From assembly GCF_024298765.1 (NCBI RefSeq), contig NZ_CP101210.1: a stretch of DNA of 64,000 nucleotides; one strand, given 5' to 3'. Both the position numbers and the translations under genes were made by a program. This document shows positions 5,584-21,298 of this stretch, piece by piece (positions within the stretch are counted from its first letter, which is position 1; the number at the start of each line of letters is the position of its first letter). The stretch is from Escherichia coli (lineage in GTDB: Bacteria; Pseudomonadota; Gammaproteobacteria; Enterobacterales; Enterobacteriaceae). Below the pieces are notes generated by a model that saw only the letters and a program-made list of their open reading frames with translations, was not told where the DNA came from and searched no databases.

Positions 5584-6636
5584 TTAGCTGTCGGCGAACT
5601 TCAGGCCAGTGACCATCGCGCACTTGCCATAGTCTTCAACGACATAAGCGTCATTGATGGACTGGTAGGTGGCGATGCGGTTGTATTCCGGCTCGTCTTT
5701 CATCAGGCGACGCATTGTTCCTTTCTGCCAGTAAATCGACAGGTTATTGAACGAGGTGATCAGCATCGTTGAATCCGGGAAGAACGGCGCAAGGAATACA
5801 TCCAGCCCGCCAATGGCGCGCGATGACAGGATGAGCTGTCCGGCAAGTAATTCCGCATTGGGATTCTGGCCGCTGATGCTGTTCAGCACGGGCAGACGCA
5901 GCGAGTTAAACAGGTTGCGCCCCATAATCACCACGAGGTCGTCAGCTTCCTTGTGCCATTCATCCAGCAGGGATGAGCGCGCGTCCTGTACCAGTGCATC
6001 AGCGTTCGCATACTTACCCGCGTGCGCCACGGTGTTGTCCATGTTGCGGGAGGTCAGCGTCACGTCATTCATTACGCGCTCGCTGGCGTCGGTTCTGATG
6101 TGCTCCAGCCATCCCACGTTAACGTCCTGAAGCAGCTTGTTGGTGCTGAAGTTGGACTCATCTGCGTGAGACGTGCCGTTGAAACCGATCATGATGCGGT
6201 CAAGCGCCACCTGCCGGGCAATCTGTGTGCTGACGCGTGACTGAAAATCAGGGTGTGCCGCCCAGGCATCAAGCTGCGGATACGAAATAAACGTGTCGTA
6301 GTTCACCTGTTCGCACTGATATTTGCGGTTTTTCAGATCAACCACGTTATTCGGGTTACGGCGTTTTGTGCCGTCATAACTGGTATTCGTGCGCGCAATC
6401 GGCCCGGTGGTGTCCAGGAGGATTTTTTCGCCTTTCTGGTCGGTCACACCGAACACGTTAATTTTTTTTGTAAATTCAGTGCTCTCCTTTACTGCGTTTT
6501 CAAAACGCTGCTGCACCGAGGGTTCCACGGTAAATCGCGATACCAGTGCAGATACCGGGATGTTGTTAAGCGACGCCTGCTGCGCCATATAGCAACCCAG
6601 CTTGTTGCGGGTAATATCTGACATCACCAGATTCAT
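5584..6636 (-). CDS. major capsid protein (gpN-like); start may be an internal Met
   Basis: 350 aa; FTVEPSV and YVVEDY segments match the remembered P2 gpN. Confidence 0.85.
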   Translation of the reverse strand: MNLVMSDITRNKLGCYMAQQASLNNIPVSALVSRFTVEPSVQQRFENAVKESTEFTKKINVFGVTDQKGEKILLDTTGPIARTNTSYDGTKRRNPNNVVDLKNRKYQCEQVNYDTFISYPQLDAWAAHPDFQSRVSTQIARQVALDRIMIGFNGTSHADESNFSTNKLLQDVNVGWLEHIRTDASERVMNDVTLTSRNMDNTVAHAGKYANADALVQDARSSLLDEWHKEADDLVVIMGRNLFNSLRLPVLNSISGQNPNAELLAGQLILSSRAIGGLDVFLAPFFPDSTMLITSFNNLSIYWQKGTMRRLMKDEPEYNRIATYQSINDAYVVEDYGKCAMVTGLKFADS

Positions 6637-6659: not shown

Positions 6660-7496
6660 TCAGAAGTCAGCCAGTTGATCGGAGGCTGCGCCCGTTGCGG
6701 TGAACCGGTTCTGCGGATCGCCGTCCTGCGTGCGCAGTTTTTCCTTCAGTGCTGTCAGCTCTGTGGTCAGTAAAGTGATTTTCTGGCTGTCCTGCTGATG
6801 GCGGGTTTCCAGCGCATTAAAACGGTCGATAATGTCGGCCTGTGACGTTGCGACACCTTCCACCGCTTCCTGAATACGGGAGAAACTGGCGTCATCCGCT
6901 TTGCGGCCACGGCCAATAATCCCCATAACGCGGTTAAACCACTGGGTGCCTTCTTCCTGACGTTGTTCGGTGAGTTCGATAAGTTCTGACTCCATAGCGG
7001 CGGTAAACATCGCCACGTCTCCCTGCTGACAGTTGAATGTCATCAGTTGCATACGTTGTTGTGCCGCAAAGGCCAGACGTTCCGTGCCCAGGCTGGCGGG
7101 GGTGTCGGTCATTGCCAGCCCGCGCAGGTAAGGGCCTCCCGTGATGGTTGACTGTGGTTCCAGCTCAATACTGGAGTAAATTTTTTTACCATCGTTAAGC
7201 AGGGACATCATGCGAGCGGTCGGCTCAATTTCGGCATACAGTGCCGTGCGACCTGCCAGCGGGCCATCGGTTATGTCTTCGGTGCTCAACCCCACAACAT
7301 CGCCCATAGCGGAAAACTCGCTACCGGGGAGTGGTGACAAGATGTGCTCAATATTCACACGTGCACCATAAACGGACGGGTTATAACTGGTGGCGGCAGC
7401 TTTCAGCATGTCGCCGTTGATTTCGCGCCCGTCTGCCGTTACACCGGAGACAGCCACGCGAAACTTTTTGCGGGATGTCTTTTTTTCATTAGCCAT
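6660..7496 (-). CDS. capsid scaffolding protein (gpO-like)
   Basis: ATG at 7496 preceded by GAGGGG; begins MANEKKTSRKKFRVAVSG, similar to the remembered P2 gpO N-terminus. Confidence 0.8.
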   Translation of the reverse strand: MANEKKTSRKKFRVAVSGVTADGREINGDMLKAAATSYNPSVYGARVNIEHILSPLPGSEFSAMGDVVGLSTEDITDGPLAGRTALYAEIEPTARMMSLLNDGKKIYSSIELEPQSTITGGPYLRGLAMTDTPASLGTERLAFAAQQRMQLMTFNCQQGDVAMFTAAMESELIELTEQRQEEGTQWFNRVMGIIGRGRKADDASFSRIQEAVEGVATSQADIIDRFNALETRHQQDSQKITLLTTELTALKEKLRTQDGDPQNRFTATGAASDQLADF

Positions 7497-7650
7497 AGTT
7501 TTTGCCCCTCTGACTGGTTCTTCAGTCATGATGGCAAAGCGTAACAGGCTGATACAAAGGGCTTTTGTTGTAAGAAAACAGTCAGAACAGGGGGTTAAGG
7601 AGAACGGTTTCGCGCGCGGGTAATCTTCCTGTAATTACTCAGGGGGAGCA

Positions 7651-9402
7651 ATGATTCAGGACGCTTTTGTGCGCCAGCGTGCGCGACAACTTTACTGGCA
7701 GGGTTATCCGCCCGCAGAAATATCACGTCTGATGGGAATAAACCCGAACACGATTTATGCGTGGAAAAAACGCGACCAGTGGGATGAAACGCCACCCGTG
7801 CAGCGTGTCACGCAATCCATTGATGCGCGCCTCATCCAGCTTACTGAAAAACAGAATAAAACAGGCGGTGACTTCAAGGAAATAGACCTGCTGACACGGC
7901 AGCTTAAAAAGCTGCATGATGGCCAGCCGGATGTGATTGCCGCAGGAAAGAAAGGCCGGGCGAAAAAACTCAAAAATCATTTCACGCCGGAACAGATTGC
8001 CGCACTGCGGGAAAAAATCATCAGCAGGCTGGAGTGGCATCAGCGGGGCTGGTTTGACTCCCTGACCCTTTGCAGGGAAGCCGGGATACGTAACAGGATG
8101 ATCCTGAAATCCCGACAGATTGGGGCGACCTGGTATTTTGCACAGGAAGCACTGCTGATGGCGCTGCGTGACGATGTGGTGCAACCTTATCAGCGTAACC
8201 AGATTTTTTTGTCTGCGTCGCGTCGTCAGGCGTTCCAGTTTAAAAGCATTATTCAGAAGGCCGCGGCTGAAGTTGATGTGGAGCTGAAAGGGGGCGATAA
8301 AATCATCCTCTCCAACGGCGCAGAGCTGCATTTTCTCGGCACTTCTGCTGCGTCGGCACAGTCCTATACGGGCAATTTTTATTTTGATGAATTCTTCTGG
8401 GTCAGTCGCTTTGCTGAACTGCGCAAGGTGGCTGGCGCTATGGCAACCCTCAGCGGACTGCGGCGCACCTACTTCTCCACGCCATCCACCGAAACGCACG
8501 AGGCATACGCCTACTGGAACGGCGACCGCTGGAACGAGAAAAAGGCCACGCATAAACGCCAGCGTTTTTCTGTGGACTGGAAAACGCTGCATAACGGGCT
8601 TATCTGCCCTGACCGGACGTGGCGGCAAATTGTCACGCTGGAAGATGTGGTTAATCACGGCTGGAAACACACCGATATTGATGAAATTCGTGATGAAAAC
8701 ACCGAAGACGAGTTCCTCAATCTCTATATGTGTGAGTTTGTCCGCGAAGGGGAATCGGCATTTAACCTGAATATCCTGATTGGCTGTGGTGTTGACGGAT
8801 ACGACGACTGGAAAGACTGGAAACCTTTTGCTCCCCGCCCGATGGGGAATCGCCCGGTATGGATTGGGTATGACGCAAATGGCAGCAGTGGCAACGGCGA
8901 CAGCGGCGCTGTGTCCGTGGTGGTTCCTCCGGCTGTTCCTGGTGGCCGTTTTCGAACGGTGGAGACGCGACGCGTTCAGGGGCTGGAGTTTGAAGAACAG
9001 GCCAGAGTCATTGAAGAGTTCACGTGTCGCTACAACGTGGAACACATCGGCATTGATGTGACGGGCGGGAACGGGGAGGCTGTTTATCAGATAGTGAAAC
9101 GGTTTTTCCCTGCCGCTATTCCGTACACCTTCACGCTGTCATCAAAACGGTCGCTGGTACTGAAAATGCTGCAAATAATGCGTGCAGGGCGGTGGGAATA
9201 CGATCGCGCCGAACGCGAGCTGGTCGCGGCCTTTAACGCCGTGCGTAAGGTGAAAACACCGGGCGGCTTTATCACTTACGAAACGGACCGCGCGAGGGGG
9301 ATCAGCCACGGCGACCTTGCGTGGGCAACCATGCTTGCTGTCATTAACGAACCAATTGGCGGCGAAGGAGAAAACGAGCGTTTCACGGTTATGGAGTTCT
9401 GA
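7651..9402 (+). CDS. terminase large (ATPase) subunit (gpP-like)
   Basis: 583 aa, divergent from O, followed by portal with 1-nt overlap, as in P2 P-Q. Confidence 0.85.
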   Translation: MIQDAFVRQRARQLYWQGYPPAEISRLMGINPNTIYAWKKRDQWDETPPVQRVTQSIDARLIQLTEKQNKTGGDFKEIDLLTRQLKKLHDGQPDVIAAGKKGRAKKLKNHFTPEQIAALREKIISRLEWHQRGWFDSLTLCREAGIRNRMILKSRQIGATWYFAQEALLMALRDDVVQPYQRNQIFLSASRRQAFQFKSIIQKAAAEVDVELKGGDKIILSNGAELHFLGTSAASAQSYTGNFYFDEFFWVSRFAELRKVAGAMATLSGLRRTYFSTPSTETHEAYAYWNGDRWNEKKATHKRQRFSVDWKTLHNGLICPDRTWRQIVTLEDVVNHGWKHTDIDEIRDENTEDEFLNLYMCEFVREGESAFNLNILIGCGVDGYDDWKDWKPFAPRPMGNRPVWIGYDANGSSGNGDSGAVSVVVPPAVPGGRFRTVETRRVQGLEFEEQARVIEEFTCRYNVEHIGIDVTGGNGEAVYQIVKRFFPAAIPYTFTLSSKRSLVLKMLQIMRAGRWEYDRAERELVAAFNAVRKVKTPGGFITYETDRARGISHGDLAWATMLAVINEPIGGEGENERFTVMEF

Positions 9403-10448
9403 TGAGCAGAAAAAATAAAAAAGTGCGCATGAGTTCACGCATTGATCTCGCTGATGCGCTCAGGAAAGAATCATCGCTCAGTGCATTCACATTTGATGGT
9501 CCTTATCGCCTGACCGGGCATGACCTGCTGGACAATATGTACTGTGCTGATAACGGGCGGTGGTATGAAACCCCGGTGGACTGGTACGGTCTGGCAAGAG
9601 CCGCCCGGCAAACGTCCTGGCATCAGTCTGCGCTTTACTTTAAGCGCAATGTATTACTCGGTTGCTACATCCCGCACCCGCTGCTTTCCCGGCAGGATTT
9701 CTCGGCGCTGGCGCTGGACTGGTTTGTGTTCGGTAACGCATTCCTTGAGCTTCGGAGCAATATGCTCGGCGAACCGCTTAAATTACGGCACGCCCTGGCG
9801 AAATACATGCGACGCGGAAGCGATCTTGAATCATGGTGGTATGTGCAGGATGGCAAGGACGCGTTCCAGTTTCGCCCTGGCAAAGTGTGCCACCTGATGA
9901 ATCCGGATATTAACCAGGAAATCTACGGCATGCCGGAATATCTTGGCGCATTACTCTCGGCCAGCCTTTCTCATTCGGCGGACATGTTCAGAAAACTGTA
10001 CTACGACAACGGATCCCACGCCGGGTGCATCATCTACATCGGTGCAGCGCAGGTAAACCGCGAAAGCATGGACTCCCTGAAAGAAACGTTACAGGGTGCG
10101 CGTGGTGGTGGTGCATTTAAAAACGTGCTCATTCATGCGCCCAACGGGGGCAAAGAAGGGGTGCAAATTTTGCCGTTCCAGCAGATCACCGCAAAAGATG
10201 AGTTCATGAATGTTAAGGCGGCATCCCGTGATGATGTGCTGGCTGCGCACCGCGTTCCGCCGCAACTGATGGGGGCGATGCCGGGCGAAAAAAGTGCGTT
10301 TGGTGATGTGGAGAAGGCCGCGCGGGTTTACGCAATTAACGAGCTGATGCCCGTCATGGAGGCCATGAAGCACATCAATGACTGGCTTGGCGAAGAGGTG
10401 ATCCGCTTTAACCCTTACGCACTGTTAGACACCCAGCCCACATCCTGA
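9402..10448 (+). CDS. portal protein (gpQ-like)
   Basis: 348 aa, size and position match P2 gpQ; last morphogenesis gene before the cos/cargo region. Confidence 0.85.
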   Translation: MSRKNKKVRMSSRIDLADALRKESSLSAFTFDGPYRLTGHDLLDNMYCADNGRWYETPVDWYGLARAARQTSWHQSALYFKRNVLLGCYIPHPLLSRQDFSALALDWFVFGNAFLELRSNMLGEPLKLRHALAKYMRRGSDLESWWYVQDGKDAFQFRPGKVCHLMNPDINQEIYGMPEYLGALLSASLSHSADMFRKLYYDNGSHAGCIIYIGAAQVNRESMDSLKETLQGARGGGAFKNVLIHAPNGGKEGVQILPFQQITAKDEFMNVKAASRDDVLAAHRVPPQLMGAMPGEKSAFGDVEKAARVYAINELMPVMEAMKHINDWLGEEVIRFNPYALLDTQPTS

Positions 10449-10872: not shown

Positions 10873-10899
10873 TTGTGCAAATTTGTGCACTATTGTGCA
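10873..10899 (+). promoter_or_regulatory. three direct TTGTGCA repeats at 10-bp spacing with a nearby TATAGT; candidate operator/promoter of the cargo operon
   Basis: TTGTGCA at about 10873, 10883 and 10893 (a fourth copy near 10801); TATAGT at about 10904; about 80 nt upstream of the cargo ATG. Confidence 0.35.
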
Positions 10900-10978
10900 T
10901 TTGTATAGTGAAAAAAATATAGCAGAAAGTATACTTAGCGCCTTGTGGGCTACGTTAACTTTGCAGGAACATTTGGAA

Positions 10979-12358
10979 ATGAAAAAAATCAATAAAGAAG
11001 ATTCTAAAAGAACCTTTTTACGTGGATGGTTGCGATTTCTTCGTAGCGTTGAGAGAGCTAAGAAAAAAAAGCCTGCGCAAGAGAAAAATGGTAGTCTTCG
11101 TTTTTCCGATGAAACAACTCCTGTCCAAAACCAAGTCGCTACGTTCATTGAAAATATATCGATTATAAAAGAGTATGACTCATCAATTCTTCGTCGTGAC
11201 GCAGAGAAGATATTAATACCTAAATATTTTGACTTATATGACAATCCAGAGAAATCTCTGCTATTTATTAGTGCAGCCACAAAATTAATTGCAAGAGGTA
11301 AATGGAAATCATATATTTTTGATTACAAGAAAAACAAAAAACACTGTCTTGGTCTTGAGTGTCTATTAGGTGTTGCTCTTACAGCAGCAAGGCAAAGTAA
11401 TATAAATTTCAAAGATACGATGATTCAGATTAATGGTATCTACCCTAAAGATGAACAGTATCTTGAAATTATCAGGGATGTCGGGCTTGTAAAAGAGATT
11501 AGTAATGCTGCACCAGGTAAAGTTCTGGACTCTACTGAAGCATCGAAAAAAGCGAATCCGAAGAAACGAATCTTCTCTGCTGATAGTATCGGAAAGGAGA
11601 ATGCTTCTGCCTTTGCCCATGACAGAAAAAATGTCACTGCTGAAAAATTTACCGCATACATAAACGAATGCTTAAATGATCATAATTTAAAACTTGTACA
11701 TGAGGCAGAAAAGCATTTAACTTCCTGCATGGGGGAACTCCTTGATAATGCGGAGCGGCATTGTGGGTTAGAGCAACGCCCACGCTGGTATTTGAGAGGT
11801 TTTGTTAATAATAACGTACGAAACCCCATATGTGAGTTGGCTGTTTTCAATTTTGGGAAAACTATCAGCGAAACTTTTGATAATTTACCTGAGGATCATT
11901 TTTCATTAAGTCAACAAGTTAATCCATACATAAATAAGCATATTAAGAAAAAGGGTATGTTTAAGGAAGGATTAACAACAGTAGCGGCCTTGCAAGGGCG
12001 GGTGAGTTGTAAAAACGAGAAAGAAACTGACAGTTCTGGCACCGGAACAATTGAATTATTGAAGTTATTTCAAGATATGCATGATAATCTTAAAAAAATG
12101 GGAAGAGATATTAAAGGTGGGATAAAAATGACTTTAATATCTGGTAGTACTCATATTAACTTTGATGGATCATATAAATTAAAGCAAAGGTTGGTTAATG
12201 ACGAGGAAAGTGACATTTTTACTTACCCTTTTAATGATGTAGGGCTTGAATCTGAACCGGATCGCAACTATCTTAAGCGTATGAAGGATGCTCGATTTCC
12301 TGGAGTTATGATCAATATTCGTTTTCCTCTACCAGAAAACGCCACCCAGCGAACTTGA
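10979..12358 (+). CDS. cargo gene 1: GHKL-type ATPase / anti-sigma-factor-kinase-like protein, 459 aa from ATG 10979
   Basis: N-box-like ELLDNAERHCG, possible degenerate G1 (FNFGKT) and G2 (SSGTGT) boxes; AT-rich; AGGAA 8 nt before ATG; the track start at 10883 is a TTG. Confidence 0.6.
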   Translation: MKKINKEDSKRTFLRGWLRFLRSVERAKKKKPAQEKNGSLRFSDETTPVQNQVATFIENISIIKEYDSSILRRDAEKILIPKYFDLYDNPEKSLLFISAATKLIARGKWKSYIFDYKKNKKHCLGLECLLGVALTAARQSNINFKDTMIQINGIYPKDEQYLEIIRDVGLVKEISNAAPGKVLDSTEASKKANPKKRIFSADSIGKENASAFAHDRKNVTAEKFTAYINECLNDHNLKLVHEAEKHLTSCMGELLDNAERHCGLEQRPRWYLRGFVNNNVRNPICELAVFNFGKTISETFDNLPEDHFSLSQQVNPYINKHIKKKGMFKEGLTTVAALQGRVSCKNEKETDSSGTGTIELLKLFQDMHDNLKKMGRDIKGGIKMTLISGSTHINFDGSYKLKQRLVNDEESDIFTYPFNDVGLESEPDRNYLKRMKDARFPGVMINIRFPLPENATQRT

Positions 12359-12368
12359 GGACAGGTAC

Positions 12369-12713
12369 ATGAAAATGGCTGACATCACCATAGATTTCAA
12401 TAAGTTAGTAAAAGATAGTAACAAGAAACTTTTTGCTGGACGTTCTAATGGGCGCCAGGCCTATGATTACTTTAATATAGGGAAATTTTGCACAACCAGT
12501 AATGATAGATTATATCTATTGATCCCCAAGGGAATTGTTGTATCAAGCTCATACTTTCTAGGTATGCTTGAAACGGTTTTGCCGAAATTTTCTTCGCCTA
12601 GCGAATTTTATAGTCGCACTGTACTTGATGGTCGTGAATATAAAGAAGGTATGCTTTCTGAATTAGATAGAGCTGTAAGGAGAGGCTTACATAAAAATGT
12701 TCCCTTCTTTTAA
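12369..12713 (+). CDS. cargo gene 2: small STAS-like (anti-sigma-factor-antagonist-like) protein, 114 aa
   Basis: GAGGA 8 nt before ATG, overlapping the stop of gene 1; segment LLIPKGIVVSSSYFLGMLETV recalls the SSSF-type STAS-like signature. Confidence 0.55.
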   Translation: MKMADITIDFNKLVKDSNKKLFAGRSNGRQAYDYFNIGKFCTTSNDRLYLLIPKGIVVSSSYFLGMLETVLPKFSSPSEFYSRTVLDGREYKEGMLSELDRAVRRGLHKNVPFF

Positions 12714-13506
12714 AAATATTTTTCAAATCAAAATGACAGCGCTGTCTGTCATTTTTTTTATATTCCCCGCAGCTTGCTCTGTGACAGATTTTTCCAATAA
12801 AGAAAACATTGAATGTAATGAGTCACTTTATCCAAACACGCCTTTTTATATTTCCGATTCAGGACTTAGTGGTATATCATCACCGTTTTTGTTATCCGGA
12901 AACCCGAATGATGGCTTGATGTTTTGTGAAAAGGCAAACGACACCTTTCATAAGTTATCTCTGGCAAGGGATAACAAAAAAGATTTATTTACTAATTATT
13001 TCAAAGATGTTCCAAATTCCTATGATATATATAATATTGTAAAGGTTCCGGAAAATGGTCCAGAGTGGATTTCTATTGGCATCTCTTTATTTGCTTTAGT
13101 TTCATCCTTTGTTATTCCTTGTGTTCAACATAGAAAAGAACGTAAAGAAGCTATTAATGAAGGGTATTGGGTAAGAGAAGTAATTATGCCTAAAATTAAT
13201 GGGTTGGCATTCGATGTTGTGCAAAGTTTTAAAAACTCCATGGCATTATCAGAAGAGGAGTTTCTTAGTGTATTCAGTAATACTCTTTTACCAAAACTAG
13301 GAGAGTTACGGGATTCATTATATTTGTTTAATAGTTTTCCAGAATTAAATGCAGATATTGAAAATCTAGAAAGTATTTGTGACTCCTTGGAGGAAGAAGT
13401 TTCCAATCATATAGACTCGCCTAATGAAATAAGAATTTCTGATATATCAATGTTTCATTCCAAATTAATACAGAAATTAATTTTACTTCATAAGAAGATA
13501 GGTTGA
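12697..13506 (+). CDS. cargo gene 3: membrane protein, candidate effector (N-terminal signal/anchor, one internal TM, acidic C-terminal domain)
   Basis: Overlaps gene 2 by 17 nt; hydrophobic N-terminus TALSVIFFIFPAAC and TM WISIGISLFALVSSFVIPCV; AT-rich. Confidence 0.6.
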   Translation: MFPSFKNIFQIKMTALSVIFFIFPAACSVTDFSNKENIECNESLYPNTPFYISDSGLSGISSPFLLSGNPNDGLMFCEKANDTFHKLSLARDNKKDLFTNYFKDVPNSYDIYNIVKVPENGPEWISIGISLFALVSSFVIPCVQHRKERKEAINEGYWVREVIMPKINGLAFDVVQSFKNSMALSEEEFLSVFSNTLLPKLGELRDSLYLFNSFPELNADIENLESICDSLEEEVSNHIDSPNEIRISDISMFHSKLIQKLILLHKKIG

Positions 13507-13551
13507 TTTTCAAGGCCTCCTTATTCCTAGGGCGGCCTTAGCTCTATATTT

Positions 13552-16344
13552 CTATCGTGTTCGATGCAATAAACTGATTTTTTTGCGAGCATGTTTAGTG
13601 GTTTCACTGATTCTCTGTGCGTGCTCTGCGTCGCGGATGGCGCGCAGCATGTCAGAAAGTACGGTAACGGGTGTTTTCATGGTGTTCTGGTCTTGCTGAA
13701 GTGTGGATGCCAGGCGTGCGGCGGCTTCAGGGTCTGATGCCTCTAGTTGTTCCAGATAGCTGGCGACCGGGTTATGGCGGATCTCCGTGCTGCTTACGCC
13801 GTGATTACGACTCAGGCGTTGCCAGAGCTGCGTGATTCGGCTGTCCGGGCGGGTATCCTGTTTGCGTACAATTTCAAATCCCTGCGGTGCAATGATGCTG
13901 CCGCCAACGTACAGACTGCCGCCTCGTAACAGGTGCTGCATCTGCTGTTCACCGATATGCAGGCCGAGAGATTCAGCAGACTCCCGCCATTCTTTAGCGA
14001 GTAACTCGTGGTTATCAGGCAAAGGCTGTGGCTGTTTGCGGCTCTGTGTCCAGTTCTGCATTTCATCACTGCTGTTTTTTGCCTGTTTGTCACGCAGCGA
14101 ACGCATCAGTGCCCGGCGTTCGTGCCGTTTCAGTGAGCGCATCCATTCATTCACGTCAACGCCTTCAGGAAGCCGCGGCCACGGTGCTGGCCGTTCTTCC
14201 GGCTGTTCTGTCCCGTTGTTGTCCGTTTCCTGTACACGGGGACAGTTATTGCCACGAGTCCAAGGGGCGGCAGGGCCGCCCTGAAGGTCAAAACCATTTT
14301 CGCGGGCGCTGTCTTCCGTTTCCGGTTTACGTCTTACCAGTTTCCAGTTATCCGGATGCGTGCACACACGGGAGGATTCCCCGATGAGTGGTGACCAGAT
14401 CCCGTAAATCTGTACGCTCTGTTCGCCGTAATCATTCAGCTCATCTGCGAGGTCGTAGGCGGTGCGAATCAGGTAGTCTTTGCGTGGAACAAGTACGCCG
14501 CCCTGTTTTTCAATGTAGGTGGCAAAACACCCGGCATCGGCGGCAGCGAGTACCGCATCCATTGCGTCATCTTTCAGTCGTTGCGGGCCTTCCGGGTTGC
14601 GTGCCATCTGGCTGGCAAGGCGGCGCAGTTCACGCCACACCTGACGGGAGGGGATGCCAAAGAACTGGAACTGGCGGACCCGATGAAGGCGCGCCCAGCC
14701 GATGGCGCGCTCCACACTCTCGGCCATTGATTTTCCGGTTTCGTGGTCAACGCGTGGCTTGCCCGTTTTCGGGTCGATGCCATCCACGGCGCGGCTGTCC
14801 AGGTTCTTTCCGATGTAGGTCGCGATATAGCTGGTTGGTGTGCCTTTTGAGCCGTCGACATACTCCGCCTTAAAGCGCGGAGTAATATCATTGCCCAGCT
14901 CGTGGCGGTCTTCCTGAATGGCAATATCGCGGGTGATGGCCACGATGCTGTCGATTTCTTCCGGATGAGCAAAGACCATCATATGCCAGTGCACGGTGCC
15001 GTCATGGTGAGGCTCCACCGTGCGGATGCCATACCAGCGAAGACCGTCGCGGTTCAGTTTTTTGCGGACCGCCGCAAAAAACGTGTTAACCAGGTAATCG
15101 CTGGAGTCGCGCATGGTGGCCCCGTTCCATTTGGGATTCGGATGACCGTTCTCTGTTGTGGCGTGGTATTTTGACGGGCAGGTGACAGTCAGAAACACCG
15201 CTTTGTCGCCACGGGCTTCGGCCAGAAGTTCCAGCCCCTTCATGGTGGCCATCATTTCTGCCTTACGGTGAACCGGGTTACTTACTCCCGCGTAATACAC
15301 CGTCTCGAGATCAATCGTGAACCCGTCTTCGTTTTCCAGCATGAAACTTTTCAGGAAATCGCGTGTTTTCTCGCGCTGTGCGCGAAACTCGCTTAACGCG
15401 TCCTGGCTCAAATAGGGCGATGTTTTTCTGGAAACCAGACAGGCGGCGCGGAGTTGTTCTTCTCTCCACTCGCAACGTAACAGCCACAGTTTGCGTTTCC
15501 ACCATTCCGCACAGGTCAGGCGAAGGATTGCGCCCGGCAGCAGTTCTGTGTCCGGTTCGTTCCTCCGGTCTTTGTCTGTTGTCAGTGCGTCATAATGCGG
15601 AGGCATGGCGTGCAAGTGTAACGCCATGCGGGCCAGCATCTGATACGCCTTCAGCGTTACATCCATGGTCAGCTCGCCATCGGTCGCGCCAAAACCATCG
15701 CAGAGTTTTTCGAAGGTGCTGCTGAACATCGCCGCCGTCATGGTGGCCAGCGTCTGTATCTGGTGTTTGTTGAGTTGCGGCAGGTAAAGCAAATCGTCCA
15801 GGCGTTCACGTCCGGCAAGGGACCGATAACCCGGTGTCAGCCAACGGCTGTCGGTGCGGTCCAGACGTACGAATATTTTGCGCAGGGTTCCGCGCGCGTA
15901 GCGTTCAGCCTGCCAGCTCTTTTTGCCTTTCTGACGATCGGATTCCTGTTTTTTGCGCAGGAAAGAGAGGTGGCGGCTCAGAGGTTCACGCAGATAAACG
16001 GGAAGCACCTTCAGTGTGGCAAAAGCACGGGCCACCGGGTCTTGTTCTGTTGCCTGACGCTTGCTGATGATGCTTTGTGCCAGCTTTTCACGCTGTCCGG
16101 CTTCCTCAAGGGATGCCATGAGTTTTTTACCCACGGTGGATTGTGCGAAAAAGGCTTCCTCCTTCGCTTCCTGTTCTTTCCGGGCCTTTTTGTCCGCCTC
16201 AAGGTAGTAACGGATGGCGCGTTGCAGCTCGGTTTCAGTTTCCTGCCTGCGCTCCGTAAATCTGTCCGGATCAATGGCTGGCCGTGGTTCATTCCAGCTC
16301 CATGCAAACTCACTCATGGCTGGTATCCCGTCACGCGCTGCCAC
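13552..16344 (-). CDS. replication initiation endonuclease (P2 gpA-like, rolling-circle HUH type)
   Basis: 930 aa with HWHMMVFAH HUH-type motif; position between early genes and cargo as P2 A. Confidence 0.8.
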   Translation of the reverse strand: MAARDGIPAMSEFAWSWNEPRPAIDPDRFTERRQETETELQRAIRYYLEADKKARKEQEAKEEAFFAQSTVGKKLMASLEEAGQREKLAQSIISKRQATEQDPVARAFATLKVLPVYLREPLSRHLSFLRKKQESDRQKGKKSWQAERYARGTLRKIFVRLDRTDSRWLTPGYRSLAGRERLDDLLYLPQLNKHQIQTLATMTAAMFSSTFEKLCDGFGATDGELTMDVTLKAYQMLARMALHLHAMPPHYDALTTDKDRRNEPDTELLPGAILRLTCAEWWKRKLWLLRCEWREEQLRAACLVSRKTSPYLSQDALSEFRAQREKTRDFLKSFMLENEDGFTIDLETVYYAGVSNPVHRKAEMMATMKGLELLAEARGDKAVFLTVTCPSKYHATTENGHPNPKWNGATMRDSSDYLVNTFFAAVRKKLNRDGLRWYGIRTVEPHHDGTVHWHMMVFAHPEEIDSIVAITRDIAIQEDRHELGNDITPRFKAEYVDGSKGTPTSYIATYIGKNLDSRAVDGIDPKTGKPRVDHETGKSMAESVERAIGWARLHRVRQFQFFGIPSRQVWRELRRLASQMARNPEGPQRLKDDAMDAVLAAADAGCFATYIEKQGGVLVPRKDYLIRTAYDLADELNDYGEQSVQIYGIWSPLIGESSRVCTHPDNWKLVRRKPETEDSARENGFDLQGGPAAPWTRGNNCPRVQETDNNGTEQPEERPAPWPRLPEGVDVNEWMRSLKRHERRALMRSLRDKQAKNSSDEMQNWTQSRKQPQPLPDNHELLAKEWRESAESLGLHIGEQQMQHLLRGGSLYVGGSIIAPQGFEIVRKQDTRPDSRITQLWQRLSRNHGVSSTEIRHNPVASYLEQLEASDPEAAARLASTLQQDQNTMKTPVTVLSDMLRAIRDAEHAQRISETTKHARKKISLLHRTR

Positions 16345-18843: not shown

Positions 18844-19248
18844 ATGAAAAATGATATTGGTCAGCGGTTGCGTGAGGAAAGGGAAAGATTGGGGCTTAGT
18901 CAAGTTGCTATGAGCGAAATTGGTGGAGTCAAAAAGCTAACTCAGCTTAGATATGAGAAAGGAGATAGCTTTCCTGATGCTGCGTATTTGGCAGCGCTGT
19001 CTCGTTTTGGCCTTGATGTTCAGTATGTTGTGTTGGGAATTCACTCACCTGAAACTTATAACGATGATGAGCAGGAGTTGATTACTCGCTTTCGAGCAGC
19101 TTCGTTAGATGTAAAAAACGCGGTGATCGGGGCTTTAAAAAGTGCGGGCAGTGAAAAGGAAACTCAGCCATCAGGGCGTGAGTTAAATATTTCTGGTGGT
19201 AATAACCGTATCGCTGGTCGTGACTATAACGAAACTAAGGGTAGGTGA
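18844..19248 (+). CDS. immunity repressor (CI/C-like, HTH XRE family)
   Basis: 134 aa; N-terminal LREERERLGLSQVAMSEIGGVKKLTQLRYEKG helix-turn-helix; divergent from the early operon. Confidence 0.75.
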   Translation: MKNDIGQRLREERERLGLSQVAMSEIGGVKKLTQLRYEKGDSFPDAAYLAALSRFGLDVQYVVLGIHSPETYNDDEQELITRFRAASLDVKNAVIGALKSAGSEKETQPSGRELNISGGNNRIAGRDYNETKGR

Positions 19249-19263: not shown

Positions 19264-19914
19264 ATGGCCGTCAACTCAAACGGTTCAAACAATCGCGTTG
19301 CTGGGCGTGATTTTCACGAAAAGAATATTCAGATAGAGCGATATGATGGTTCTCATACCGTCAATATCGCAATCCCTTCGAATAATGATGATGACGCTCG
19401 CCCTTTGCTTAAGGCACAGCGTAAGGAGCTAAATAGCTTGGTTGCTGCTATTGCAGAAGCTAGCAATACTGAAGCGTTTATTATTTGGCAAAAAGTACAT
19501 GCGGAGATTGGTGTAGCTGGTATTGATGATATGACAATAAATCAATATAAAACAGCGGAGAGTTTTCTGCATGCAATGCTTGAGCGATGTAAAGATCATG
19601 ATGCCTGTAAGACTCTTGTAAGTTTATTACTACGTAACAGTGAAGACTGTGGACTTCGACAAAAACTTCTGCGGTATTGCCATATCAATTTCGGTACAGG
19701 ACGTTTAAACGATCTTACTCGTTCTCAGTTACAGTCTGCATTGTCGTGGTTAGAGCAACAATCGGTATCAAGCCACACAGAGAATTCGACCTTACCAGAA
19801 GTCCGCCTTCGTGCTTCAGAATTAATCCGATTTTATCCAAAAGAAATAATATTCTTTATCTGCGTAGGGGTTTTGGTAGGCGGAGCCATTTCTAGGATGT
19901 TTTTTAATTTGTAA
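19264..19914 (+). CDS. moron protein with C-terminal membrane anchor, unknown function
   Basis: 216 aa; GGGAGG 6 nt before ATG; AT-rich; C-terminal TM IIFFICVGVLVGGAI; lies between repressor and integrase. Confidence 0.55.
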   Translation: MAVNSNGSNNRVAGRDFHEKNIQIERYDGSHTVNIAIPSNNDDDARPLLKAQRKELNSLVAAIAEASNTEAFIIWQKVHAEIGVAGIDDMTINQYKTAESFLHAMLERCKDHDACKTLVSLLLRNSEDCGLRQKLLRYCHINFGTGRLNDLTRSQLQSALSWLEQQSVSSHTENSTLPEVRLRASELIRFYPKEIIFFICVGVLVGGAISRMFFNL

Positions 19915-19943
19915 TCTTACTTGAGCTAAATTGAGGCAATGAC

Positions 19944-20291
19944 ATGAAAGTAAAAAAGGTTCAACTATTAGTTGCTTTTTTATCTATGTTTTCTTTTTCC
20001 GCCGTCGCAATGCCTTTTAAAACTATTGAACGTGAGAGTTTCAATGGAGTATGGCCATTTAATACAGATGAGGTTCAATTGCAGTGTCTTGATGGTAATC
20101 CTTATGTGATGAATTTTGACGATAATAAGTTATATGCGCTTACAGGTTTGGCTCGAATAAAAGGTAAAACATTTGGTGCGTTACCGTTAGATAACAATAA
20201 TCCATTTTGGCTAGATAATGATGCCGCCCCTGGGTTAAAAAAGAATCTGGGGGACGTCACTAAGGCTGCATTTGATTTATGTGATAAGTAA
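19944..20291 (+). CDS. secreted/periplasmic moron protein, unknown function
   Basis: 115 aa with signal peptide MKVKKVQLLVAFLSMFSFSAVA and two cysteines; AT-rich. Confidence 0.55.
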   Translation: MKVKKVQLLVAFLSMFSFSAVAMPFKTIERESFNGVWPFNTDEVQLQCLDGNPYVMNFDDNKLYALTGLARIKGKTFGALPLDNNNPFWLDNDAAPGLKKNLGDVTKAAFDLCDK

Positions 20292-20296
20292 CAAAG

Positions 20297-21298
20297 ATGT
20301 CGGTTCGTAAGATTCCATCAGGTAAATGGCTTTGCGAATGTTATCCCTACGGAGCATCGGGAAAACGCATTCGTAAACAGTTTGCGACAAAAAGTGAGGC
20401 GCTCTCTTATGAGCGCCGTTTAATGAATAGTAGAGTTGGAGACGAGTTTCAAGATGGTTCTGGTCCTCGTCTTTCTGAGTTGATTGCTCGTTGGTTTGAG
20501 ATGTACGGCAAAACCTTGTCCTCTGGTGCAGAGCGCAAAGTCAAACTTGAGGCGATTTGTTCTAGGCTGGGAGATCCATTTGCTTCTCAGTTTGACAAAA
20601 ATATGTTTGCTACTTATCGGGAAAGAAGGCTATCAGGAGAATGGAATCCCAAGGGGAAGAAAAAACTTAGTGAAGCAACCGTTAATCGCGAGCAGTCATA
20701 TCTACATGCTGTTTTTGCCGAACTGAAGCGCCTTGGGGAGTGGTCTGGTGAAAACCCCCTGACTGGAATTCGCAAGTTTCGTGAGGAAGAAAAGGAGCTG
20801 GCGTTTCTGTATGTAGATGAGATTGAACGCCTTTTGATTGCGTGTGATGAGTCACGGAATAAAGATTTGGGGGTTGTTGTCCGTATTGGGCTTGCGACTG
20901 GTGCTCGGTGGAGTGAAGCAGAAGGATTAAAGCAATCTCAAGTACTGCCCGGTCGAATCACATTTGTTAAAACTAAAGGAAAGAAGAACCGCACTGTACC
21001 GATTTCACCTCAATTGCAGGCTATGCTTCCTAAAAAACGAGGAGCGCTATTTTCACCATGTTATGAGGCTTTTGACGCTGCAATTAAGAGAGCGAAGATA
21101 GAGCTCCCTGATGGGCAATTAACTCATGTGCTACGTCACACGTTTGCTAGTCATTTTATGATGCGGGGCGGAAATATTCTTGTGTTGCAAAAAATACTGG
21201 GGCATAGCGATATAAAAATGACTATGCGTTATGCGCATTTTGCTCCGGGTCATTTAGAGGCTGCTGTTGAATTAAACCCTTTTGACAATAGAGGGTAA
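20297..21298 (+). CDS. int: tyrosine-type site-specific integrase
   Basis: 333 aa; C-terminal HVLRHTFASH...ILGHSDIKMTMRYAH catalytic R-H-R-Y pattern; next to the att/tRNA fragment. Confidence 0.9.
   Translation: MSVRKIPSGKWLCECYPYGASGKRIRKQFATKSEALSYERRLMNSRVGDEFQDGSGPRLSELIARWFEMYGKTLSSGAERKVKLEAICSRLGDPFASQFDKNMFATYRERRLSGEWNPKGKKKLSEATVNREQSYLHAVFAELKRLGEWSGENPLTGIRKFREEEKELAFLYVDEIERLLIACDESRNKDLGVVVRIGLATGARWSEAEGLKQSQVLPGRITFVKTKGKKNRTVPISPQLQAMLPKKRGALFSPCYEAFDAAIKRAKIELPDGQLTHVLRHTFASHFMMRGGNILVLQKILGHSDIKMTMRYAHFAPGHLEAAVELNPFDNRG

Follow-up and report, generated by a model that had tools for sequence, protein, structure and literature searches.

A single-pass membrane protein as candidate output subunit of a three-gene cassette in the P2 defence hotspot of Escherichia coli

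The gpQ-gpA locus of P2 prophages is a defence hotspot, with old and tin as examples of its cargo (Rousset et al. 2022, PMC9122126). Among the cassettes that these authors catalogued at P2 hotspots is system #19, named HATPase_c/DUF4325 (Table S5B), which occurred 155 times at the gpQ-gpA locus in their survey of E. coli. Its second protein was assigned to DUF4325 by HHpred, and for its third protein they recorded a signal peptide, as predicted by Phobius, and one transmembrane (TM) helix. The same study also lists a two-gene HATPase_c/DUF4325 system in P4 satellites, which has no TM gene.

We analysed a window of E. coli DNA (the whole stretch of 64,000 nucleotides) that contains a P2-like prophage with a cassette of three genes between gpQ and gpA. 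This cassette is system #19: peptides of all three window proteins are found in the system #19 row, Table S5A lists WP_000723541, WP_000763711, and WP_001548207, and the proteins, their order, and the gpQ-gpA locus are the same. Protein 3 of Rousset and colleagues differs from the window protein by three substitutions (T99A, Y109H, and C142Y), which are the same as in the H9Ecoli allele. The system is only catalogued in that study. Their Table S2, which gives the systems that were cloned and tested, contains no sequence match to the cassette, so it is distinct from their validated system of three hypothetical proteins. In the literature that we searched, we found no characterization or experimental test of the cassette, including any reduction in phage plaquing. 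The locus contains these features:

9402..10448, + strand: P2 portal gene gpQ (PF04860), the left edge of the cargo hotspot
10979..12358, + strand: gene 1 (459 amino acids, WP_000723541), which begins with a basic helix, continues with an alpha/beta domain, and ends in a GHKL domain like those of the anti-sigma Ser-kinases SpoIIAB and RsbW
12375..12713, + strand: gene 2, a small STAS-like (DUF4325) protein (112 amino acids from the RefSeq start, or 114 from ATG 12369)
12697..13506, + strand: gene 3 (269 amino acids, WP_001548207), an exported single-pass membrane protein, N-out/C-in
13527..13546, + strand: a weak terminator-like hairpin between the convergent genes 3 and gpA (consensus match only)
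13552..16344, - strand: P2 replication endonuclease gene gpA (PF05840), the right edge of the cargo hotspot

The three genes are inherited as a single unit. The cassette was found in 22 of 5,426 complete E. coli genomes, with three intact open reading frames in all 22, and the order gene 1-gene 2-gene 3 is retained at every gammaproteobacterial locus that we fetched (14 IMG/VR contigs and 15 genome loci, which are L002-L017 with L010 left out as a likely E. coli contaminant). The cassette ranges to Aeromonas, Vibrio, and Idiomarina, and a looser form is present in Alphaproteobacteria and Acidobacteria. The genes next to the cassette differ between loci. One copy (L005) adjoins a gene for a KAP NTPase, another (L007) adjoins type I restriction-modification hsdR and AAA_15/21 genes, and a third (L008) adjoins genes for a methyltransferase, an SRA-HNH protein, and a NERD protein.

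The preliminary description placed gene 3 at the end of a kinase/antagonist-like operon and read it as an abortive-infection effector. A defence setting is supported by the location in the hotspot and by gene 2, which is a "predicted novel defense gene" in the DefensePredictor listing (log-odds 7.46). The effector reading is partly supported. We propose gene 3 as the membrane output subunit of a candidate three-gene anti-phage cassette, gated by a partner-switch-like kinase/STAS pair; we give this proposal a probability of roughly 45%. For the cassette as a whole, it draws on the hotspot location, the low GC content (34.8% in the cassette versus 54-56% in the flanks), the identity with system #19, the DefensePredictor score of gene 2, and the genes that adjoin other copies.

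None of the three proteins matched PADLOC-DB v2.0.0 (E up to 0.1) or NCBIfam, and the distant cassettes and P4 system #69 had no match in PADLOC-DB v2.0.0 at E up to 0.01. Hmmscan against Pfam with the single sequences and with every alignment member gave nothing significant, and neither sequences nor profiles found anything in the PDB. In PHROGs, genes 1 and 2 had weak matches to families of unknown function, and gene 3 had none. Similarly, tblastn with gene 3 against 50,697 phage genomes and 72,556 plasmids found no match, and neither did an Rfam search with the cassette.

Gene 1 has the compact GHKL fold of anti-sigma factor kinases of the SpoIIAB/RsbW type, and one of its relatives matched HATPase_c_2 with E = 0.013 in the Pfam search. 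The N box (E253xxxN257xxxH261) and the G2 glycines (G354xG356) are invariant. However, in the G1 box, an invariant N291-F-G-x-T takes the place of DxGxG, so that asparagine replaces the adenine-binding aspartate, and this makes kinase activity uncertain. Gene 2 is a putative antagonist or partner of gene 1. It had no match in the Pfam, PDB, and hhalign searches, and its invariant motifs are LFxGRxNG and (V/I)(S/T)SSYFLG, with S58 and S59 both invariant. When aligned to P4 system #69 with hhalign, gene 1 gave a sensible but non-significant alignment and gene 2 gave nothing. Profile searches with genes 1 and 2 found no recognizable nuclease, NADase, or other effector domain, and none of the three cassette genes matched a PP2C phosphatase or a sigma factor.

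Gene 3 is a real gene and not a chance open reading frame, as indicated by the RefSeq annotation (WP_001548207, identical coordinates), by its homologs (21 clusters at 90% identity, or 35 representatives at 50% identity), by a dN far below dS relative to diverged alleles, and by a confident AlphaFold2 model. The reading frame that had been proposed at 12697-13506 (+) is present and translates to the 269-residue protein that was quoted with it. The start codon had been left ambiguous between ATG 12697, which overlaps gene 2, and ATG 12733. The overlap is confirmed, but we now favor ATG 12697, because Met1 is invariant in the alignment, because K6 and K12 (the only basic residues of the signal's n-region) both lie upstream of Met13, and because the 17-nt overlap with gene 2 is kept in the E. 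coli, Rahnella, and Aeromonas alleles that we examined (L002-L006). We rejected ATG 12733, which has no Shine-Dalgarno sequence and lies within the 5' arm of a conserved hairpin. The protein has four parts:

12697..12777, + strand: residues 1-27, export signal, with K6/K12 in the n-region, the h-region TALSVIFFIFP, and the lipobox-like AAC27/S (from hydropathy)
12778..13032, + strand: residues 28-112, hypervariable periplasmic segment (pLDDT <50; absent from some members)
13066..13125, + strand: residues 124-143, TM helix (from hydropathy, the AlphaFold2 helix 123-152, and a stripe of small residues)
13126..13503, + strand: residues 144-269, cytoplasmic part, with a basic juxtamembrane QHRKERKE, an AINEGYWxREVIMPK motif, and an acidic four-helix bundle

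Gene 3 crosses the inner membrane once, with the variable N-terminal stretch in the periplasm and the four-helix bundle in the cytoplasm. Kyte-Doolittle hydropathy (19-residue window) shows just two peaks, at residues 8-33 (TALSVIFFIFPAAC) and 122-145 (WISIGISLFALVSSFVIPCV). These match the hydrophobic N-terminal signal and the one internal TM helix of the preliminary description, and its acidic C-terminal domain is also found (net charge of -7 over residues 144-269, with 14 K+R and 21 D+E). The atypical lipobox that it suggested is plausible as well. Cys27 is nearly invariant, and the box in the window, F-P-A-A-C27, is atypical in having proline at -3, as compared to the consensus [LVI][ASTVI][GAS]C at the end of the h-region. 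Among the 55 members of the family, the lipobox is canonical or of PROSITE type in 18 and takes the form (F/L)P(A/T)(A/G)C, as in the window protein, in 16. Another 19 lack a lipobox, and the last 2 lack the N-terminal extension. Ordinary AxA-type signal peptides are found in about 13 of those 19, as judged by reading the listed N-termini. On export, the signal is cleaved and Cys27 is probably lipidated.

Gene 3 is most conserved in its TM helix and its cytoplasmic bundle. An invariant PE(S/N)GPEW motif precedes the TM helix, and one face of the helix carries a near-invariant stripe of small residues (S126-S130-A133-S137-P141, at i, i+4, i+7, i+11, and i+15). Across the 55 members, position 130 is always S or A, A133 is conserved in 53, and S137 in 51. 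This suggests that the face is for helix packing and that the helix is not a passive anchor. The stripe is a sign of self-association, and by extension gene 3 may form oligomers. In the cytoplasmic part, W158 and P165 are conserved in 54 of 54 members and R160 in 52 of 54. The AlphaFold2 model is confident for the TM helix and the bundle (residues 123-268, pLDDT of about 85-90), with bundle helices at residues 155-181, 186-213, 215-237, and 243-268. Searching the PDB with this model using Foldseek gave generic four-helix bundles only, all with E > 0.1 (PsbQ, the sensor domains of Tar and NarQ, FAT/vinculin, and designed bundles), which we set aside as fold-class noise.

The periplasmic segment is quite different: its identity is 19-22%, as against 60-75% for genes 1 and 2, and it is missing from P0046-48, from L016, and from all of the distant cassettes. 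In the acidobacterial and alphaproteobacterial cassettes, the third gene has one TM helix and a helical cytoplasmic part. Hhalign of gene 3 with the third gene from alphaproteobacterial and from Granulicella cassettes gave probabilities below 1%, and we regard these as, on sequence comparison, architectural analogs only.

These features bear on whether gene 3 could act in superinfection exclusion as a lipoprotein, like Llp of T5 or Cor of phi80, and obstruct a receptor or the entry of DNA from the periplasm. Gene 3 does have a lipoprotein-type signal and a variable periplasmic part, and it is encoded by a prophage. But to our knowledge, exclusion lipoproteins are encoded by single genes and have neither a second TM helix nor a conserved cytoplasmic domain. 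In gene 3, the strongest conservation lies in the TM helix and the cytoplasmic bundle, relatives can do without the periplasmic part, and genes 1 and 2 accompany the gene in every case. Given the conserved cytoplasmic domain and the obligatory linkage, we rejected this explanation as highly improbable. A holin was also rejected: gene 3 encodes 269 amino acids, while holins have fewer than about 150 and are encoded beside an endolysin, and the gpQ-gpA site is away from the lysis genes. Gene 3 did not match any of the holin families in PHROGs.

Gene 3 is the fastest-evolving component of the cassette, by 4-8 times relative to genes 1 and 2. For instance, the variability of residues 28-112 is seen in a dN of 0.387 versus 0.048 for gene 1. 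(We compared dN only, and we dropped dN/dS as a test for positive selection, because dS is saturated.) Also, all six of the SNPs between two near-identical alleles are in gene 3. Change this rapid is more often the mark of a sensor, or of a surface that is contacted by phage, and the type I N-out/C-in topology with a four-helix bundle is receptor-like.

These observations raise the alternative that gene 3 serves as an anchor or sensor in the membrane. It would tether the module of genes 1 and 2 at the inner membrane and, by way of its exposed periplasmic stretch and its TM helix, tell the cytoplasmic GHKL/STAS switch of events at the envelope, for example the adsorption of a phage or the entry of its DNA. 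The output would then lie in gene 1, either in its N-terminal domain, in ATP turnover, or in phosphorylation of a host or phage target. We consider this doubtful. In its favor, besides the topology with its cleavable signal, the hypervariable periplasmic part, the high dN of gene 3 as a whole, and the placement of the SNPs, a motif resembling C-x(8-10)-C recurs in the periplasmic part of many family members, and about 200 N-terminal residues of gene 1 have no assigned fold. Furthermore, the related pair from P4 works, if it does at all, without a TM gene, so pairs of this kind may carry their own output. On the other hand, the periplasmic segment is absent from several members and from all of the distant cassettes, while the TM helix and the bundle are conserved instead. 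This stretch has no confident fold, which would suit a spacer as well as a sensor. Finally, neither gene 1 nor gene 2 has a detectable effector domain.

Within the first 60 nt of gene 3 is the best terminator-like site of the region:

12730..12763, + strand: terminator-like hairpin AAAATGACAG-CGCTGT-CTGTCATTTT, followed by T8, across codons 12-23 of gene 3; a candidate attenuator of gene 3

This hairpin has a folding energy of -9.9 kcal/mol (z = -2.8). It is present in 7 of 8 enterobacterial alleles, in which 98.6% of alignment cells are paired, with two compensatory pairs and a variable loop. Also, dS is 0.41 over codons 1-27 of gene 3 versus more than 1.4 elsewhere.

A hairpin that limits dosage, along with the tight linkage of the three genes, would also suit a toxin-antitoxin system. 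The cassette could be an addiction module of the prophage, or a regulator of its own lysis-lysogeny decision or envelope physiology, and would then play no part in defence against other phages; gene 3 would be a toxin or conversion protein that is restrained by genes 1 and 2. Indeed, maintenance functions, for example partition, are found in about one in four P2 hotspots (Rousset et al. 2022, PMC9122126), and in E. coli 23CRST027, the cassette adjoins ParM-type partition genes. Nevertheless, we view this as unlikely. The cassette also occurs outside of prophages, both in the chromosome of Aeromonas dhakensis amid metabolic genes and in a defence-type island of Vibrio beside a type I restriction-modification system. 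The DefensePredictor score of gene 2 also speaks against it, and an antitoxin-like DNA-binding domain is absent.

We return to gene 3 as an output subunit. In a resting lysogen, the GHKL domain of gene 1 would restrain the four-helix bundle of gene 3 in an inactive state, in the way that a sigma factor is held by its anti-sigma factor. Infection would alter the interaction between gene 1 and gene 2 (the partner switch), and the trigger might be the nucleotide state, phosphorylation of gene 2 at Ser58/Ser59, or a phage protein. The freed subunits of gene 3 would associate via the conserved small-residue face of the TM helix and perturb the membrane, which would stop the infected cell (abortive infection). 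The internal hairpin would hold the dose of gene 3 low relative to genes 1 and 2. An active role for gene 3 in the membrane is suggested by the TM stripe, the attenuator-like hairpin, the strict linkage of the three genes, and the lack of any other effector domain, and it is supported by the distant cassettes, which keep a third gene with one TM helix and a helical cytoplasmic part. Against it are the rapid evolution of gene 3, its receptor-like topology, and the lack of a match to a known effector, as well as the asparagine in the G1 box, the lack of an accompanying PP2C phosphatase, and the lack of demonstrable homology to the third genes of the distant cassettes.

In a bolder version, gene 3 would be sensor and effector at once: the lipid-anchored and rapidly diversifying stretch in the periplasm would sense phage activity at the envelope, the TM helix would relay the signal to the four-helix bundle, and the GHKL/STAS pair would gate assembly, leading to membrane collapse. 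This seems improbable. If true, it would be a new kind of envelope tripwire and the first anti-phage system to be run by an anti-sigma-type partner switch; in the literature that we searched, partner switching (an anti-sigma-type kinase with a STAS partner) was not tied to phage immunity.

P2 prophages carry the cassette fairly often, but the catalogs of defence systems that serve genome annotation do not include it. If it defends, then it would add the signaling logic of an anti-sigma-type kinase and its STAS partner to phage immunity, along with a new family of single-pass membrane effectors. Handles for experiments are the TM stripe, W158/R160/P165 of gene 3, Ser58/Ser59 of gene 2, the asparagine of the G1 box, and the internal hairpin.

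How does the cassette compare to known systems? Among the closest are partner-switching modules (SpoIIAB-SpoIIAA, RsbW-RsbV, UsfX-RsfB, and SiaB-SiaC): gene 1 has the GHKL fold of the anti-sigma factor kinases, and gene 2 is a putative STAS partner. In contrast to these modules, the cassette has no sigma factor and no PP2C phosphatase, and its third partner is a membrane protein. Gene 1 has an additional N-terminal region of about 210 amino acids and the change from Asp to Asn in the G1 box, and the cassette lies in a prophage defence hotspot instead of being part of stress or sporulation regulation.

The validated RT-nitrilase + 1TM system from the P4 hotspot, whose single-TM protein is regarded as the effector by Rousset and colleagues (2022, PMC9122126), is also a hotspot cassette whose last gene encodes a single-TM protein with a helical cytoplasmic domain. 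However, that protein is not homologous to gene 3 (hhalign probability 0.2%), its TM helix is N-terminal, it lacks both a signal and a periplasmic part, and it is paired with different enzymes.

Csx23 of type III CRISPR is a proven small membrane effector with a cytoplasmic regulatory domain (PMC11014256). We found no similarity in sequence or fold between gene 3 and effectors of this type. Gene 3 also differs in having a cleaved export signal and a periplasmic stretch, and its input is presumably a protein partner (GHKL/STAS) and not a cyclic nucleotide. Cam1 and the TM effectors of Pycsar and CBASS are further small membrane effectors of defence. What gene 3 would share with the Csx23-type effectors is their logic: each subunit contributes a few TM helices, a small domain in the cytoplasm takes up the signal, and the subunits oligomerize, with a presumed loss of membrane integrity.

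Gene 3 (WP_001548207, 269 amino acids) is the last gene of a three-gene cassette in a P2-like prophage of the E. coli chromosome. This region is 100% identical to that of strain WS1933D, and the cassette's surroundings are:

5584-6636 (-), capsid gene
6660-7529 (-), scaffold gene
7651-9402 (+), large terminase gene
9402-10448 (+), portal gpQ
10979-13506 (+), the three-gene cassette
13552-16344 (-), replication endonuclease gpA, convergent to the cassette

Because the GC content of the cassette is 34.8%, versus 54-56% in the flanking phage genes, we consider it to be acquired cargo. In P2-like phages, the interval between gpQ and gpA is known as the old/tin locus, a hotspot for anti-phage systems (Rousset et al. 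2022, PMC9122126). Two more accessory genes lie between a repressor-like HTH gene (18844-19248) and the integrase (20297-21298), and this region (19264-20291) may be a second cargo site of the prophage; PADLOC had no match for either gene:

19264-19914 (+), 216 amino acids with a C-terminal transmembrane (TM) helix (phrog_5825, function unknown; weakly similar to a "moron membrane protein" family)
19944-20291 (+), secreted protein of 115 amino acids (phrog_2950, function unknown)

RefSeq calls the same ORF for gene 3 (12697-13506), as a hypothetical protein. Its translation is exactly as given in the preliminary description, with a hydrophobic N-terminus (ending in AAC27), an internal TM helix (a second hydrophobic stretch at residues 124-143), and an acidic C-terminal domain (net charge of -7 in the last 126 residues). 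That description left the start ambiguous between ATG 12697 and ATG 12733. Comparative data favor ATG 12697, because Met1 is invariant among homologs, the lysines of the signal's n-region lie upstream of Met13, and the 17-nt overlap of genes 2 and 3 recurs in divergent alleles from E. coli, Rahnella, and Aeromonas (loci L002-L006). ATG 12733 is disfavored: it lacks a ribosome-binding site and lies within an arm of a conserved hairpin. By sequence clustering, the family is small and sharply bounded, with 21 clusters at 90% identity (from Escherichia, Citrobacter, Klebsiella, Raoultella, Morganella, Rahnella, and Aeromonas) and just 35 representatives in a 50%-identity clustering of 1.84 billion sequences.

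The hairpin is the strongest terminator-like site of the region and falls within codons 12-23 of gene 3:

12730-12763 (+), terminator-like hairpin, AAAATGACAG-CGCTGT-CTGTCATTTT then T8

It has a 10-bp stem, a 6-nt loop, and a T8 tail (dG -9.9 kcal/mol, z -2.8), and it also sequesters the alternative ATG. Of 8 enterobacterial alleles, 7 retain the hairpin, with a loop that varies freely; it was not found in distant cassettes. In the alignment, the proportion of paired cells is 98.6%, with two double compensatory changes; synonymous divergence is 0.41 in codons 1-27, versus >1.4 elsewhere. These data are suggestive of a conserved RNA element and go no further, because the covariation is modest with seven sequences (60 of 500 shuffles do equally well) and because the stem also encodes conserved residues. 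The hairpin may be an attenuator that sets the dose of gene 3: if it is a partial terminator, then gene 3 would be expressed less than genes 1 and 2.

The linkage of the three genes is obligatory: every gammaproteobacterial locus that we retrieved had all three side by side in an unchanged order, as did 14 viral contigs from IMG/VR. Among complete genomes of E. coli, 22 of 5,426 carry the cassette, with three intact ORFs in all 22. The cassette occurs in hotspots and defense islands. It is found in other E. coli P2-like prophages (L002-L004, with a gene 3 allele that is 45% identical); in a Rahnella P2-like prophage, adjoining a KAP NTPase gene (L005); at a chromosomal site in Aeromonas dhakensis that is not within any prophage (L006); in a Vibrio parahaemolyticus island, adjoining type I restriction-modification hsdR and AAA_15/21 genes (L007); in a prophage of Aeromonas veronii, where a methyltransferase, an SRA-HNH gene, and a NERD gene come next (L008); in a 186-like prophage, between cI and the integrase (L009); and in genomes of Proteus, Yersinia, Idiomarina, Enterobacter, Rosenbergiella, Erwinia, and Vibrio crassostreae (L011-L017).

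The KAP NTPase in Rahnella has 1,090 amino acids (L005:2512-5784), and the AAA_15/21 gene beside hsdR in V. parahaemolyticus is split by an IS transposase (L007:1-5019). The cargo site of the 186-like prophage differs from the gpQ-gpA slot of P2; its full gene 3 homolog (L009:7732-8340, +, starting near 7732), with a lipobox, a TM helix, and the SIHDEYWMRSVIYP motif, was shortened to a 93-amino-acid ORF (8059-8340) by the source collection's gene caller. In E. coli 23CRST027, the cargo beside the cassette includes ParM and plasmid-partition genes (L024:5563-7304). All three genes are also present on a 3,147-nt contig (L010, DEQA01000158.1) of the MAG "Planococcaceae bacterium UBA3378," whose gene 1 protein matches that of E. 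coli at 100% identity; the contig almost certainly reflects contamination by E. coli or mis-binning into a Firmicutes MAG.

The cassette had been described as a kinase/antagonist-like operon. This is supported: the GHKL domain of gene 1 has a SpoIIAB-like fold and gene 2 is a putative STAS-like protein, while phosphotransfer is putative and the cassette contains no PP2C phosphatase or sigma factor. We found no other effector-type domain in it. Gene 1 has an invariant N box (E253, N257, H261) and an invariant G2-like GxG. Its G1 box (residues 291-295, at 11849-11863) reads N-F-G-K-T, not DxGxG; in 31 relatives (N-F-G-x-T), Asn291 and Gly293 are invariant and the adenine-contacting Asp is never found. 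Gene 1 may therefore be a pseudokinase, or it may use a different nucleotide. No fold could be assigned to its N-terminal ~210 residues (a basic helix and an alpha/beta domain). A mechanical ORF begins at TTG 10883 and would give 491 amino acids; the start is at ATG 10979 (MKKINKED...) in RefSeq and in all homologs, and the 32 upstream codons (10883-10978) are probably untranslated. Gene 2 (112-114 amino acids) has invariant LFxGRxNG and (V/I)(S/T)SSYFLG motifs. HHpred placed it in DUF4325, a STAS-like family (Rousset et al. 2022, PMC9122126); our own searches for its family, which are less sensitive than HHpred, gave no match.

AlphaFold2, run on an alignment of the gene 3 family, gave no confident structure for residues 1-116, then a continuous TM helix (123-152) and a four-helix bundle (155-268), both with pLDDT of about 85-90. 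Fold and sequence searches returned nothing beyond generic four-helix bundles. The N-terminal hydrophobic segment is predicted to behave as a cleavable export signal. The preliminary description noted a possible atypical lipobox; its form, (F/L)P(A/T)(A/G)C, is shared by 16 of 55 family members. The lipobox is canonical or of the PROSITE type in 18, and 19 have none, of which ~13 have an ordinary AxA-type signal peptide, as judged by reading the N-termini. Two of the 55 lack the N-terminal extension, and a few more begin shortly before the TM helix. Because of the export signal and the single TM helix, which Rousset and colleagues also recorded for protein 3 of their system #19 (using Phobius; PMC9122126), the mature protein is modeled as N-out/C-in: ~85 residues lie in the periplasm, a single TM helix follows, and the bundle is cytoplasmic. 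This topology agrees with the positive-inside rule, given the basic stretch QHRKERKE that comes after the TM helix.

Between alleles whose genes 1 and 2 share 60-75% identity, the periplasmic part of gene 3 is 19-22% identical and the TM and cytoplasmic part is 57-67% identical. The most conserved part is a juxtamembrane motif, AINEGYWxREVIMPK (W158 in 54/54, R160 in 52/54, P165 in 54/54). The TM helix has five near-invariant small positions, at i, i+4, i+7, i+11, and i+15, across the 55 members:

S126, 91% small or polar
S130, 100% S or A
A133, 53/55
S137, 51/55
P141, 39/55

At the intervening positions, I, L, V, and F interchange freely. This stripe marks a helix-helix packing face. A superinfection-exclusion lipoprotein would fit poorly with the conserved cytoplasmic domain and with the obligatory partners, genes 1 and 2, and we consider that role very improbable.

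More distant pairs of genes 1 and 2 are found in Granulicella, an alphaproteobacterial MAG, Ensifer, Ciceribacter, and Roseibium. Each pair is followed by a protein of 167-227 amino acids with an N-terminal TM helix and a helical cytoplasmic part and without a periplasmic segment. Homology of these third proteins to gene 3 was not demonstrable; the architecture is the same. Therefore, what stays constant across cassettes is a TM helix plus a helical domain in the cytoplasm, to which the enterobacterial branch has added a signal peptide and a periplasmic stretch.

Gene 3 is also the fast-evolving member of the cassette. Relative to an E. coli allele that is 78% identical, amino-acid identity is 91% for gene 1, 88% for gene 2, and 60% for gene 3, and dN is 0.048 for gene 1, 0.069 for gene 2, and 0.387 and 0.218 for the periplasmic and cytoplasmic parts of gene 3 (dS is saturated, so we make no claim about dN/dS). 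A 99.8%-identical copy from another E. coli (H9Ecoli) has six differences (12991, 13021, 13095, 13121, 13164, and 13449), all in gene 3 (T99A, Y109H, C142Y, and three synonymous changes), and zero in genes 1 and 2 (1,718 nt). If differences were evenly spread, the chance of this would be about 0.001; the clustering suggests either recombination or faster evolution of gene 3. Rapid evolution and a receptor-like topology would suit an anchor or sensor, and a TM-less HATPase_c|DUF4325 pair exists in P4 satellites (Rousset et al. 2022, PMC9122126). The periplasmic part is, however, dispensable across the family, and we regard this role as rather doubtful.

Our tentative reading (probability roughly 45%) is that gene 3 acts as the membrane output subunit in a candidate system for abortive infection, with the partner-switch-like pair gating that system. 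The earlier suggestion of an abortive-infection membrane effector is reasonable and in part supported, by the topology, the TM stripe, the cytoplasmic bundle, the SpoIIAB-like fold of gene 1, the three-gene linkage, the hotspot and defense-island context, and the lack of another effector-type domain. The GHKL domain of gene 1 would sequester the bundle of gene 3; an infection cue would move gene 1 towards gene 2, or alter its nucleotide or phosphorylation state; and the freed gene 3 subunits would pack via their small-residue faces, compromising the membrane. Elsewhere, an effector role has been proven for small membrane proteins that carry a cytoplasmic regulatory domain, such as Csx23 (PMC11014256), and the TM proteins of such cassettes are generally regarded as effectors (Rousset et al. 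2022, PMC9122126).

The cassette has been catalogued before, and a defensive role has been predicted for it. It is system #19 ("HATPase_c | DUF4325," 155 occurrences) in Table S5B of Rousset et al. 2022 (PMC9122126), with its three RefSeq accessions in Table S5A, and DefensePredictor (Science 2026) reports gene 2 as a predicted novel defense gene (mean log-odds 7.46). PADLOC has no model for it, and we found no experimental work on it in the literature that we searched. Defense itself is a candidate function; an addiction or regulatory module with no role in defense seems unlikely. The cassette is worth cloning, with clear mutational handles. Because it was outside the cloned set of Rousset and colleagues, it is distinct from their validated system of "three genes with no clear predicted domain." It is a variant of the familiar "sensor plus membrane effector" defense cassette; what would be new is the coupling of a partner-switch-type kinase/STAS pair to a type I single-pass membrane protein.
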